From Patescibacteria group bacterium (lineage in GTDB: Bacteria; Patescibacteriota; Patescibacteriia; Patescibacteriales; JBAZCA01), in NCBI GenBank assembly GCA_041661505.1, contig JBAZUF010000001.1, forward strand, positions 177,576 through 241,575: a stretch of 64,000 nucleotides of DNA. The letters are read 5' to 3'. This document shows, one piece after another, positions 4,357 through 8,151 of this stretch. The notes beneath the pieces were generated by a model that was given only the letters and a program-made list of their open reading frames with translations, ran no database searches and was not told the DNA's origin. Made by a program: the position numbers and the translations under genes. The stretch's first letter is position 1, and every line of letters starts with the position of its first letter.

Positions 4357-5094
4357 TTATCTAATCCCGCAATTTTTTACGTATTTCAAAGCAATTTTCC
4401 GAAGTCCCTCCATCTCTTTCATATTATACGCTTTTTCTCCCCGAAATCTTTCATTTACCAGTTCGGTTTCTTTTTTAAACCCCTGTAAAAACCAATTTTC
4501 CTCCCCTTTTATAAGTTTTCCCAGGGCTTCAATATCGCTTTTATCAACCAGGCCGGGAACCGCGGTCGTCCGGAATTCGCGCGCCACCCCGCTTTCCCTA
4601 ATTATTTTAATACTTTTTTTTATTTTATCCAAGCCGAACTTAATGCCGCAGGCTTTTTCATATTCTTCTGGCGCGGCCTTTAAATCCATGGCAATATAGT
4701 CAGCTAATTTTTCCTTAAAAATCCGGGAAAGCATCTTTGGGTTCGAGCCATTGGTATCCAGTTTGATGAGATAGCCGAGCTTCTTTATTTTGGCGAGGAA
4801 TTCGGGCAGGTCAGGTTGGATGGTCGGCTCTCCGCCGGTTACTACCACCCCGTCCAGCTTCCCTTTTCTTTTTTTCAGAAAATCAAAAAGATCACCCTCC
4901 TTAATTCGGGGATGACCTTCTTGCCCTTCACCTTTTGGTGAAGGATATTTTACCTTGCCTCGCCTTTTGGGCCAGACAAGCACGGGGTTGTAGCAGTAGT
5001 GGCAGCGGAAATTACAGCCCTGGGTGAAAACAATGGCTGCGATCTTTCCCGGGTAATCGAGCAAGCTGAATTTTTGTAATCCGCCGATTTCCAT
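4357..5094 (-). CDS. nrdG: Anaerobic ribonucleoside-triphosphate reductase activating protein (radical SAM)
   Basis: N-terminal FSLLDYPGKIAAIVFTQGCNFRCHYCYNP (CX3CX2C). It sits directly downstream of the nrdD ORFs, and its start overlaps the preceding stop (TAATG). Confidence 0.85.
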   Translation of the reverse strand: MEIGGLQKFSLLDYPGKIAAIVFTQGCNFRCHYCYNPVLVWPKRRGKVKYPSPKGEGQEGHPRIKEGDLFDFLKKRKGKLDGVVVTGGEPTIQPDLPEFLAKIKKLGYLIKLDTNGSNPKMLSRIFKEKLADYIAMDLKAAPEEYEKACGIKFGLDKIKKSIKIIRESGVAREFRTTAVPGLVDKSDIEALGKLIKGEENWFLQGFKKETELVNERFRGEKAYNMKEMEGLRKIALKYVKNCGIR

Positions 5095-5270
5095 TACTCA
5101 TCGCATTCTTTTACATTAAACATCTTCCGGTTGGAAAATTCCGCCTGTTTGGAATCGTTCCATTGCTGGACCGGGCGGAGATAACCGCAGACGCGGCTGT
5201 AAACTTCGCAGGGCTGTCTTTTTGTTTCGATTGGGCTCATATTTTTTCTTTTTTTGGTTTTAATTTTCAT
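5094..5270 (-). CDS. Small ORF encoding the NrdD C-terminal glycyl-radical segment (separate from the main nrdD ORF)
   Basis: Below the 60-aa track threshold. Manual translation gives MKIKTKKRKNMSPIETKRQPCEVYSRVCGYLRPVQQWNDSKQAEFSNRKMFNVKECDE. The RVCGY motif is the class III RNR glycyl-radical motif. An alternative ATG lies at 5240. Confidence 0.7.
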   Translation of the reverse strand: MKIKTKKRKNMSPIETKRQPCEVYSRVCGYLRPVQQWNDSKQAEFSNRKMFNVKECDE

Positions 5271-5342
5271 TTTTGCATGGGGAAAATTAAATCCAATATT
5301 TAATTATATATATTTAAGTAAAAATACTTCTAGGCATATTAA

Positions 5343-7556
5343 TCAGGCAAGCAGCCGGATTAAATCGCGATCCAGATTTACTTTGTCTTTTCCCGCTGAT
5401 TCGGCGCCTCTTTCTTCTCCTTTAATTCCCTGGCTAGTTTTAGGATTTTCATAACCCGCTTTCCGGCCAGGCCCATTGCCGCCGGATCCGGATTCTCTAA
5501 ATTTATCAGTCTTTAATTCAACAATCCCGTTCTCGGCGTCGCACTTGGGACAGAAATAATGTTCGCCGGCCAGGTAGCCGTGCTTGGGGCAGACCGAAAA
5601 GGTCGGAGTGATAGTAAAGTAAGGCAGATGGTAATTGTAAGCGATTTTTTTTACCAGGCTTTTAACCGATTCGGCCGAAGGCAGGGCTTCGCCGACAAAA
5701 GCGTGGAAAACCGTTCCGCCCGTATATTTGGTCTGCAGGTTGTCCTGCAAGTCCAGGGCTTCAAACATGTCGTCGGTGTAATTGACCGGCAATTGGGTCG
5801 AATTGGAATAGTAAGGCGAAGCTTTGCCGGCCATAACGTCTTTGTCGTTTGCCACGATTAATCCCGGGTATTTCTTTTTGTCCAGATTGGCGAGGCGCCG
5901 AGTTGACCCTTCGCCCGGCGTCGCTTCCAGGTTATATAGATGATTGGTGGAATTCTGGTAATCCATCATTTTCTCGCGGATGAAATTCATCATCTTGTCG
6001 GCAAAAGCTTTGCCGGCCGCGGACGTAATTGAAGCTTTGATCGGCGCGAAATTTAAAAGCGCTTCGTTCATGCCAATAATGCCGATAGTTGAAAAATGGT
6101 TGTTCCAATAGCCGCCAAAGCGCATCTTAACGCTGTCGAGATAGTGCCGGGCATAAGGATAAAGCCCGCCGTCGGTAAGATCTTCCAAAATTTTTCTTTT
6201 CATTTCCAAACTTTCTTTGGCAATTTGCATTAAATTGGACAAGCGCTCGAAAAATTCTTCTTCGGTTTTCGCGAGATACCCGATGCGGGGAAGATTGATG
6301 GTTACAACGCCGACCGAGCCGGTCAAGGGATTCGCGCCGAACAATCCGCCGCCCCTTTTTCGGAGTTCCCGGTTATCAAGGCGCAACCGGCAGCACATAG
6401 ACCGCGCGTCCTCCGGCGACATGTCCGAATTGATAAAGTTGGAAAAATACGGAATGCCGTATTTGGCGGTCATATCGAAAACTTTCATCGCCACCGGAGA
6501 ATCCCAGGCAAAATCCTTGGTTATATTGTAAGTCGGAATCGGGAAAGTAAAGACCCGCCCTTTAGCATCCCCTTCCATCATCAGCTCGGCAAAAACTTCG
6601 TTAAAAATATCCATTTCAGCCTGGAATTCCTTGTAGGTTTCTTTCTGGGGCTGACCGCCGATAATCACCGGCTCATCTCGCAAGCTCCCGGTAACTACCA
6701 AGTCCAGGGTTATATTGGTAAATGGGGTTTGGAAGCCGACCCGGGTTGGGACGTTAATATTAAATAAAAATTCCTGCAAAGACTGGCGGACTTCTTTTCG
6801 GGTTAAATTGTCGCGGCGGATAAAGGGGGCAAGATAGGTATCGAAGTTGGAAAAAGCCATAGCGCCGGCCACTTCGCCCTGCACGGTATAGAAAAAGTTA
6901 ATCACCTGGCCTAACGCGGTTCGGAAATGCTTGGCCGGCCCGGATTCGATTTTTCCCGAAACACCGCCGAATCCGCGCGTAAGCAAATCGCGCAAATCCC
7001 AGCCGGCGCAATAGGGGGCGATAATTTGCAGGTCATGCAAATGCAGATCGCCGTCTTTATGAGCCTCGCGGATATTGGCCGTATAAATTTTATTCAGCCA
7101 ATAATTCGAAGAAATATCCGAAGCGATATGGTTATTTAACCCTTGCAAGCTGTAGGACATGTTAGAATTTTCCTTTACTCTCCAGTCGGTATTATTAATG
7201 TACGAGTCAACTAGGCTCGCGTAATCAACCAAAGATTTCATGTCCCGCAGGCGCGCTCTTTGGTCGCGGTACAGGATATAAGATTTAGCGGCTTTAATCT
7301 GGCGGTTAGAAATTAAAACCTCTTCAACAATGTCCTGGACTTCCTCGACGGCCGGAATAGACCGGGCGTGGAATTTTTTGTTTAAGGTTTCGATTACGTC
7401 CGCGCTTAACTTTTTCGCCAATTCGCGGTCCGGCGCGCCGATAGCTTCGGTTGCCTTAAAAATCGCTTCAGTAATTTTTTCCGGCAAAAACGGAGCTATA
7501 TCGCCTGAACGTTTTAAAATCTGCGTTACTTTGTTTTCGACTTGCATGGGTTCCAT
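5343..7556 (-). CDS. nrdD: Anaerobic (class III) ribonucleoside-triphosphate reductase, large ORF lacking the glycyl-radical motif
   Basis: Has an N-terminal ATP-cone, the core motifs SNMSYSLQGL, CCRLRLD and NLEATPGEG, and a Zn site CPKHGYLAGEHYFCPKC. It then runs into a 60-aa low-complexity tail ending at a TGA. Confidence 0.9.
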   Translation of the reverse strand: MEPMQVENKVTQILKRSGDIAPFLPEKITEAIFKATEAIGAPDRELAKKLSADVIETLNKKFHARSIPAVEEVQDIVEEVLISNRQIKAAKSYILYRDQRARLRDMKSLVDYASLVDSYINNTDWRVKENSNMSYSLQGLNNHIASDISSNYWLNKIYTANIREAHKDGDLHLHDLQIIAPYCAGWDLRDLLTRGFGGVSGKIESGPAKHFRTALGQVINFFYTVQGEVAGAMAFSNFDTYLAPFIRRDNLTRKEVRQSLQEFLFNINVPTRVGFQTPFTNITLDLVVTGSLRDEPVIIGGQPQKETYKEFQAEMDIFNEVFAELMMEGDAKGRVFTFPIPTYNITKDFAWDSPVAMKVFDMTAKYGIPYFSNFINSDMSPEDARSMCCRLRLDNRELRKRGGGLFGANPLTGSVGVVTINLPRIGYLAKTEEEFFERLSNLMQIAKESLEMKRKILEDLTDGGLYPYARHYLDSVKMRFGGYWNNHFSTIGIIGMNEALLNFAPIKASITSAAGKAFADKMMNFIREKMMDYQNSTNHLYNLEATPGEGSTRRLANLDKKKYPGLIVANDKDVMAGKASPYYSNSTQLPVNYTDDMFEALDLQDNLQTKYTGGTVFHAFVGEALPSAESVKSLVKKIAYNYHLPYFTITPTFSVCPKHGYLAGEHYFCPKCDAENGIVELKTDKFRESGSGGNGPGRKAGYENPKTSQGIKGEERGAESAGKDKVNLDRDLIRLLA

Positions 7557-7568
7557 AAAATATTTAAT

Positions 7569-8045
7569 TTATTTTTGTTTGGTTTCCTTAGCTTTTCTCG
7601 TCAAAAGTTTATCCAGCTCCTCGGAGAATTCGTTAATGTCCTTAAACGACTGGTAGACGCTTGCAAACCGGATATAGGCTACCTTATCGATTTTTTTCAG
7701 GTGCTTCATAATTAAGTGTCCGATCTGATCCGCCGTCACTTCGCTTTTGCGCAATTTCTGTAAATCCCTTTCGATCAAATTAACGAGCTTTTTGAAACTG
7801 TCCTTGGTAATCGGCCTTTTTTCCAAAGCTTTTTTAAGTCCGTTTTCAAGCTTTTCCCGCTGATACGCCTCTTTCCGCCCGTCCCGCTTAATAACCATCA
7901 TTTCCAGGATTTCCAATTCCTCGTAAGTCGAGAACCGGAAAAGGCATTTTAAACATTCCCGCCGCCTTCTTATCGAAAAACCGTCAGAGGCCACCCTTGA
8001 GTCCACCACTTTAGTATCCTTATAGTAGCAGATGGGACACTTCAT
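7569..8045 (-). CDS. nrdR: Transcriptional repressor NrdR (zinc ribbon plus ATP-cone)
   Basis: MKCPICYYKDTKVVDSRVASDGFSIRRRRECLKCLFRFSTYE. The ATG at 8045 is preferred over 8063. Confidence 0.9.
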   Translation of the reverse strand: MKCPICYYKDTKVVDSRVASDGFSIRRRRECLKCLFRFSTYEELEILEMMVIKRDGRKEAYQREKLENGLKKALEKRPITKDSFKKLVNLIERDLQKLRKSEVTADQIGHLIMKHLKKIDKVAYIRFASVYQSFKDINEFSEELDKLLTRKAKETKQK

Positions 8046-8121
8046 GTAGTTCGTTAGACGCATATCCCTAAAGGATAACGCGTCCGAATTAAAGCCTTAT
8101 TAATTTAGTGGCCCGTCCAAT

Positions 8122-8151
8122 AAAAAACCTGCCTGACGCCAGGCAGGAAGC
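8122..8151 (-). terminator. Terminator-like hairpin plus U-run inside the nrdR 5' leader (member of a repeated hairpin family)
   Basis: The minus strand reads CTTCCTGCCTG-GCGT-CAGGCAGG-TTTTTT. A near-identical hairpin occurs at 53984-54016. Confidence 0.55.

Follow-up and report, generated by a model that had tools for sequence, protein, structure and literature searches.

In glycyl radical enzymes, the glycine loop is believed to swing out of the barrel for activation and to return to it for catalysis. In canonical class III (anaerobic) ribonucleotide reductases (RNRs), such as the NrdD proteins of phage T4, Escherichia coli, Thermotoga maritima and Prevotella copri, the RVxGY glycine loop is part of a single chain that also holds an ATP-cone, a catalytic barrel with a CC finger loop and a zinc site, and nrdG lies immediately downstream. 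The glycyl radical domain of P. copri NrdD, which contains a structural zinc site and the radical glycine, Gly711, is a highly mobile unit (PMC11226230). We analyzed a 64,000-nucleotide (nt) stretch, hereafter the window, of a metagenome-assembled Patescibacteria genome; of this genome, the analysis covers the 64-kb window. A preliminary description of this DNA reported that its nrdD gene is split and that the glycyl radical motif RVCGY is carried by a separate small open reading frame (ORF), some 320 nt beyond the zinc site, and proposed as explanations a two-piece NrdD with a separate glycyl radical peptide, a self-splicing intron or a decaying gene. The question raised by this locus is whether its two ORFs encode one enzyme and, if so, whether that enzyme is made as one chain or as two.

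We consider it very probable that the locus encodes a naturally split class III RNR, in which the barrel and zinc site are found on one chain and the glycine loop on another. The large ORF (5343..7556, minus strand; 737 residues plus stop) matched positions 1-531 of the 562 positions of the Pfam family NRDD (PF13597; 597 bits), as well as TIGR02487 (507 bits) and, over its full length, the NCBIfam equivalog NF006126 (1044 bits, cut-off 548). The small ORF (MSPIETKRQPCEVYSRVCGY...; 5094..5240, minus strand; 48 residues plus stop) covers PF13597 positions 531-562 (E = 1e-10), its only Pfam match, and encodes the glycyl radical loop and a C-terminal segment, MSPIETKRQPCEVYSRVCGYLRPVQQWNDSKQAEFSNRKMFNVKECDE. 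The ORFs and their complementary positions in PF13597 thus confirmed the split as it was first reported. The large ORF includes an ATP-cone (residues 12-101; 7254..7523, minus strand; PF03477) and the finger-loop cysteines (SMCCRLRL), both of which were invariant in a paired alignment of 51 sequences (A2; C268/C269 in A2 numbering) that was built from locus sequences and aligned well. It resembles one-chain class III NrdD in its family profiles, finger-loop cysteines, zinc-site segment and adjacent nrdG. However, RVxGY is not found in the polypeptide that holds the barrel, as the large ORF ends at profile position 531 of 562, and this polypeptide ends instead in a variable tail with a conserved motif of its own.

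The zinc-site segment CPKHGYLAGEHYFCPKC (5541..5591, minus strand; C656, H659, C669 and C672) lies wholly within the large chain. In an alignment with P. copri NrdD, which was obtained with the full joined sequence of the large and small chains, its CPKH...CPKC pattern aligned with the CLDC...CPKC segment, and RVCGY of the small chain aligned with RITGY. Position 659 is cysteine in some relatives, e.g. CPSCGY. By this alignment, all four ligand positions of the predicted metal site fall in the large chain, which would therefore hold a complete zinc site. The cysteine of CEVYSR in the small chain had been considered as a fourth zinc ligand that bridges the chains, and was rejected on the same grounds. 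A search of PDB sequences with a 97-residue C-terminal construct gave no match.

The start of the small ORF had been placed at either 5270 or 5240. Relatives retain the start MSP(I/V)xTKRQxCEVYSR, which in the window corresponds to the ATG at 5240 (MSPIETKRQPC...) and to the 48-residue product, whereas the ATG at 5270, which would give 58 residues, is unconserved. The glycyl radical motif (5181..5195, minus strand) places the radical glycine at Gly19 of the small chain (codon 5184-5186). In seven lineages with Shine-Dalgarno (SD) usage (L038, L045, L047, L048, L051, L053 and L069), the canonical GGAGG is located 5-9 nt before the ATG of the small ORF, and weaker sites resembling the SD sequence (GAGGTG, GGGGGT) precede it in L026, L031 and L036. 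In the window, an SD-like hexamer was found before just 3 of 45 long ORFs. Start codons in this genome instead come after leaders rich in A and T, and the A-rich leader of the small ORF is like those of the other genes. As reported earlier, the stop of the small ORF overlaps the start of nrdG, with one base shared between TAA and ATG (TAATG). In 66 of 73 loci, split or intact alike, nrdG comes directly after the ORF that holds the glycine loop. The small ORF has initiation signals of its own and appears to be translated independently. Public annotations label such small ORFs as anaerobic ribonucleoside-triphosphate reductase.

A search for the same split in relatives, as suggested in the preliminary description, found it in 42 of 80 species-level genome loci, with 34 loci intact and 4 undetermined. 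The split loci are labelled as Patescibacteria, DPANN-type archaea (Woesearchaeota and other archaeal metagenome-assembled genomes, MAGs), Goldiibacteriota, an Elusimicrobiaceae MAG and a deltaproteobacterial MAG. The best 120 homologues of the large ORF (71-100% identity), mostly labelled Patescibacteria, Parcubacteria or Falkowbacteria, all lack RVxGY and end 20-65 residues past CPxC. A search with the small ORF gave 251 protein matches at E <= 0.01, and all of the 120 matches listed are standalone proteins of 40-87 residues, mostly 45-51. We also searched a library of 1.84 billion proteins, each representing a cluster at 50% identity, using as query P0124, a near-identical 47-residue homologue of the small chain, without its first methionine. 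This search gave 2529 matches at E <= 0.001; among the best 148 of these, 139 are no longer than 100 residues, and 131 of the 139 start with methionine.

These results bear on the proposal that a nonsense or insertion mutation inactivated nrdD and left the small ORF as a remnant. When this genome is read alone, the low-complexity tail and the AT-rich gap do look degraded. Against decay, the split is common to whole clades, being present in all of the best 120 homologues and in the 42 species-level genomes; the large ORF is otherwise intact, with its full-length family match; and the start codon of the small ORF and its coupling to nrdG are conserved. Furthermore, dN/dS of the small chain was about 0.1 over a 33-codon core, in which dS was saturated, and neither neutral evolution nor a high frequency of frameshifts is seen in the small ORFs. 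Both pieces are under purifying selection, the split is conserved over many lineages, and we regard decay as extremely unlikely. That the stops arose through an assembly or sequencing artefact might be suspected because the source is a MAG. It is scarcely credible, since independent assemblies from many studies and habitats contain the same split with different spacers and stop codons.

What lies between the zinc site and the glycine loop bears on a second proposal of the preliminary description, a self-splicing intron. Intact relatives with a short linker read CPxC-x3-CEVYSRVVGY, and compared with them the window has 321 additional nt, at 5211-5531; the previous figure of 318 nt (about 5211-5528) was essentially right. 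The C-terminal tail of the large chain (5346..5540, minus strand) is a variable, low-complexity linker of 65 residues with a coding-like G+C content of 48%. It ends in the conserved motif NLDRDLIRLLA (5346..5378, minus strand; consensus ERDLIxA[LIM]A) and is followed by the stop TGA (5343-5345, minus strand), 65 residues past the zinc site. The intergenic spacer (5241..5342, minus strand; 102 nt) has a G+C content of 18%, whereas the tail and the small ORF are both at 48%, includes a second in-frame stop, TAA, and ends in an A-rich leader typical of the genome. A scan for promoters and terminators gave no match in the spacer on the minus (coding) strand. The preliminary description was accurate in ending the large ORF at the TGA at 5343 after a low-complexity tail and in noting an AT-rich spacer with a second in-frame stop.

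In several phages, nrdD is split by group I introns, inteins or homing-endonuclease genes, as in T4, Lactococcus phage 949 and Clostridium phage c-st (PMC3653736). By analogy, a group I or other self-splicing intron, or RNA-level joining of another kind, might remove 5211-5531 and yield a one-chain NrdD. In addition to this precedent, the two ORFs share a reading frame in the window, and the fold energy of the insert is slightly below that of shuffled sequences, although not distinctively so (z = -1.76). However, when both strands of 4900-5800 were scanned against Rfam with cmscan at E <= 10, no intron family was matched, and the matches to miRNA, snoRNA and similar families were at chance level. 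Among relatives, the cysteine codon of CEVYSR follows the end of CPxC by anything from ~40 nt (L026, L031) to ~420 nt (L017, L018); a conserved ribozyme would be neither so short nor so variable. Small ORFs with a conserved methionine start and SD sites are likewise not expected of an intron.

The tail provides a further argument against splicing. Its length in relatives varies from about 10 to 65 residues and its sequence diverges rapidly, but in the clade of the window the end ERDLIxA[LIM]A has been kept. Over 11 loci, the codons of this motif vary synonymously (Arg, CGC/AGG/AGA/CGG; Leu, TTA/TTG/CTC; Ile, ATC/ATA/ATT), and the motif is then followed by TGA, TAA or TAG. The turnover of synonymous codons argues for selection on protein and not on RNA, and indicates that the tail, which would be the 5' part of the supposed intron, is translated and under selection as protein. 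In addition, a homologous long linker (CDxE[IL]G...KRxxCEVYSR) is part of one continuous coding sequence in two archaeal relatives, L043 (CPICDAELGITEEQARSKSVKRTKCEVYSR...) and L072. The insert of the window is thus a protein linker that has expanded and is now divided between two genes. Given these results, an intron has almost no likelihood. The window resembles the interrupted phage genes in having two coding pieces in the DNA; in contrast to those genes, whose pieces are joined again in the RNA or the protein or whose disruption is recent, it has no ribozyme or intein signature, and its pieces are conserved as separate genes. An intein, which would be an unbroken in-frame insertion with Cys or Ser at its N-terminus and His-Asn plus a nucleophile at its C-terminal end, was considered and rejected because the insert contains two in-frame stops and no intein motifs were found on reading the 65-residue tail. 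The insert's 107 codon positions are also shorter than mini-inteins.

Two ORFs can also be fused during translation, by readthrough, frameshifting or ribosomal bypass. The shared frame noted in the preliminary description was real for the window but is a coincidence, because relatives use all three relative frames. Among the split loci, the small ORF starts between -59 and 294 nt from the stop of the large ORF (median, 67), with frames 0, 1 and 2 all represented. Recoding might be suspected in certain archaea in which the ORFs overlap or abut (L026, -59 nt; L045, -26 nt; L031, -1 nt; L038, TGA-ATG in frame). Yet in each of these loci the small ORF has its own ATG with GGAGG, or a weaker site resembling SD, in front of it. 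In the window, ribosomes would have to pass two in-frame stops (TGA and TAA) and 102 nt, and among relatives the frame relation is arbitrary, gaps reach 294 nt, and there is no conserved slippery or take-off sequence. Moreover, the window contains a putative gene for release factor 2 (RF2), which reads UGA as a stop (ORF 1039-2280); we take this ORF to be RF2 from its SPF and GGQ motifs, identified by eye. Recoding is therefore very unlikely. Genetic code 25, in which UGA encodes glycine, was rejected because the second in-frame stop is TAA and because of the same apparent RF2 gene.

Locus L038 (archaeon Dive96_bin3.446; around 1839 and 2490-2700), in which the TGA of the large ORF abuts the ATG of the small ORF in frame, has a large ORF that is broken a second time upstream, its longest piece being 469 residues. 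Recoding, a pseudogene or sequencing errors are possible there; its close relative L043 is intact.

Wherever the split arises, it falls in or close to one and the same linker, which joins the zinc site to the glycine loop. In a rough and in practice unrooted neighbor-joining tree of the barrel core, split forms occupy at least four separate positions among intact ones, and this interleaving suggests repeated fission or fusion of nrdD. Several other variants were observed. Three standalone glycine-loop peptides (P0384, P0407 and P0418) have their own N-terminal CxxC…CxxC, which places the break point of those lineages upstream of or within the zinc ribbon. In three small peptides (P0363, P0364 and P0366), the RVxGY segment is duplicated in tandem (e.g. 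…CEVYSRVCGYFRPVSNWNKGRVCGYFRPVSNWNKGKKEEF…), either as a real duplication or possibly as an assembly artefact. P0045, a homologue of the large ORF with the same type of tail, is 1012 residues in length, about 320 more than its relatives, and the extra segment may be an intein or a fusion. Finally, L025 has a split-type large ORF and nearly 3 kb of downstream sequence, with no glycine-loop motif found by pattern within 700 nt; its small ORF may be divergent, relocated or lost.

The neighboring genes lie on the minus strand in the order nrdR, nrdD-large, nrdD-small and nrdG, head to tail. The nrdR gene (7569..8063, minus strand) encodes the NrdR repressor, with a zinc ribbon and an ATP-cone (Pfam PF22811 and PF03477; ORF list), and nrdG (4357..5094, minus strand) encodes the radical S-adenosylmethionine activase (TIGR02495, NrdG2; 205 bits, cut-off 131). 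Because nrdR ends 12 nt before nrdD, the four genes appear to form a single transcription unit. Just upstream of nrdR there is a hairpin that resembles a terminator (8128-8147, minus strand). In NrdG, a low-complexity stretch rich in K, G, E and P follows immediately after the CxxxCxxC cluster motif (…NPVLVWPKRRGKVKYPSPKGEGQEGHPRIKEGD…), and its composition resembles that of the NrdD tail. NrdG is also longer in the closest relatives, L001 and L002 (257 and 265 residues, vs about 230).

A separate glycyl radical protein has a precedent in GrcA/YfiD, an autonomous glycyl radical cofactor of pyruvate formate-lyase (PFL), which is also represented by Y06I of phage T4; GrcA is presumably a substrate of the cognate activase and able to complement a barrel without a functional glycine loop (PMC13450708). 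On this model, an intact NrdD would be encoded elsewhere and the small peptide would only rescue enzyme that had been cleaved by oxygen. The PFL precedent and the fact that the examined sequence is 64 kb of the genome allow for such a spare part. However, GrcA coexists with complete PFL, whereas the large chain that adjoins the small ORF has no glycine loop, and would need a partner to work at all; this is where a spare part fails to fit. No further glycyl-radical-like motif was found anywhere in the window, and the gene order and nrdG overlap match the place of the 3' end of a normal nrdD. Patescibacteria genomes are small, and a second nrdD would be unlikely in them. We therefore consider a spare part to be very unlikely, if slightly less so than a recoded fusion. 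The likeness to GrcA drawn in the preliminary description holds as an analogy, in that the 48-residue ORF is a small standalone protein homologous to a glycyl radical domain (the last 32 PF13597 positions). It does not hold further, as the peptide would be the only such part rather than a spare one, and it belongs to the NRDD family and is homologous to the C-terminus of NrdD, not to the glycine-radical family of PFL. The two-piece NrdD with a separate glycyl radical peptide, the first of the original proposals, is the one supported by the homologues, standalone ORFs, variable frames and gaps, and selection described above.

How might two such chains function as one reductase? In the split enzyme that we propose, the ATP-cone, the whole zinc site and the catalytic barrel, CC finger loop included, would come from the 737-residue chain, and the separately translated 48-residue chain would supply the buried radical-glycine loop (RVCGY) and a C-terminal surface segment. 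The peptide would dock non-covalently into the barrel, in the manner of the attached loop of one-chain NrdD, probably aided by complementary ends that are specific to each lineage. NrdG would generate the glycyl radical on the peptide, perhaps at a stage when the peptide is not docked in the barrel. Cleavage by O2 at the glycine would then leave only a 5-kDa peptide to be replaced. A stronger version of this scheme, in which the 48-residue peptide is a free, exchangeable radical cartridge that is charged by NrdG off the enzyme, docks, and is replaced after O2 cleavage, is a tentative possibility to which we give somewhat less than even chances.

Some features of the chain ends are consistent with docking. 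Net charge is negative for the tails and positive for the N-termini of the small chains, each in 34 of 41 loci. The polarity is reversed in Goldiibacteriota, whose pairs of ends resemble coiled coils, and in the Elusimicrobiaceae MAG; there, the tail and the N-terminus both look like amphipathic helices with a heptad-like pattern, e.g. ...RNKIRNEIQKLKEELIV with MEKKEILAKIEQLEQELLNV.... The pattern of charges and heptads hints that the ends may serve as a docking device.

Several considerations weigh against the two-chain enzyme. Charge complementarity is a weak statistic, and the basic KRxxC segment is also present in intact forms with a long linker. Both chains and their complex are predictions from sequence, and, the view being limited to 64 kb, an additional intact nrdD may be present elsewhere in the genome. 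In addition, AlphaFold2 gave a predicted local distance difference test score (pLDDT) of only 35 for the concatenated chains with a single sequence. With alignment A4, composed of tail-trimmed large rows, small rows and intact C-terminal fragments, the pLDDT rose to 66, but it stayed below 50 for the tail and around the finger loop, comparison with solved NrdD structures gave TM-scores of only 0.3-0.4, and no conclusion on docking was drawn. Two MAFFT alignments were discarded as unusable: in A1, the tails of large-only rows fell on the glycine-loop columns, and in A3, in which the chain order was permuted, small-only rows fell inside the barrel.

Division of an RNR between adjacent genes has been described in class II, in which NrdJa and NrdJb (Pseudomonas aeruginosa type) are encoded by two consecutive ORFs and the C-terminal part with the zinc finger is on the second chain (PMC9669993). 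The resemblance is one of architecture only: in both cases, two adjacent ORFs conserved over species jointly cover a one-chain homologue, but the RNR class and the break point are different, and the second chain of NrdJ has reductant-shuttling domains and not a radical cofactor. A conceptual comparison can also be made with the alpha and beta chains of class I RNR, in which a stable radical resides on a polypeptide apart from the catalytic barrel. In contrast to the small chain described here, which would be an excised native glycine loop and is expected inside the barrel, NrdB is ferritin-like and unrelated, and uses long-range radical transfer. The closest relation of the split enzyme is to canonical NrdD with NrdG, with which it shares family and operon logic and from which it differs in having the glycine loop on a 48-residue polypeptide.

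A full-text literature search of incomplete coverage, which included Patescibacteria, found no description of a split NrdD, and within the literature searched a separately encoded radical glycine is apparently undescribed for this enzyme class. According to a 2026 review, spare-part glycyl radical proteins are known only for formate lyases (PFL), and the same review asks whether spare-part or standalone glycyl radical proteins exist outside PFL (PMC13450708). A split NrdD would answer this question.

The split is dominant in Patescibacteria and is also found in DPANN archaea; there, nrdD gives the impression of being cut short and the small ORF readily escapes notice, with consequences for how nucleotide metabolism is reconstructed from these genomes. 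Recurrent fission at one linker points to a structurally permissive site that could serve in engineering. A natural, separate 5-kDa loop would also allow activation, docking, radical transfer and O2 damage to be studied as separate steps. Split NrdD is thus widespread, unexpected for its enzyme class and directly testable. If the peptide does act as an exchangeable cartridge, this would be the first glycyl radical enzyme with its cofactor-bearing element as an obligate separate subunit, and a living analogue of the step whereby ancestral RNRs came to draw their radical from a separate protein.

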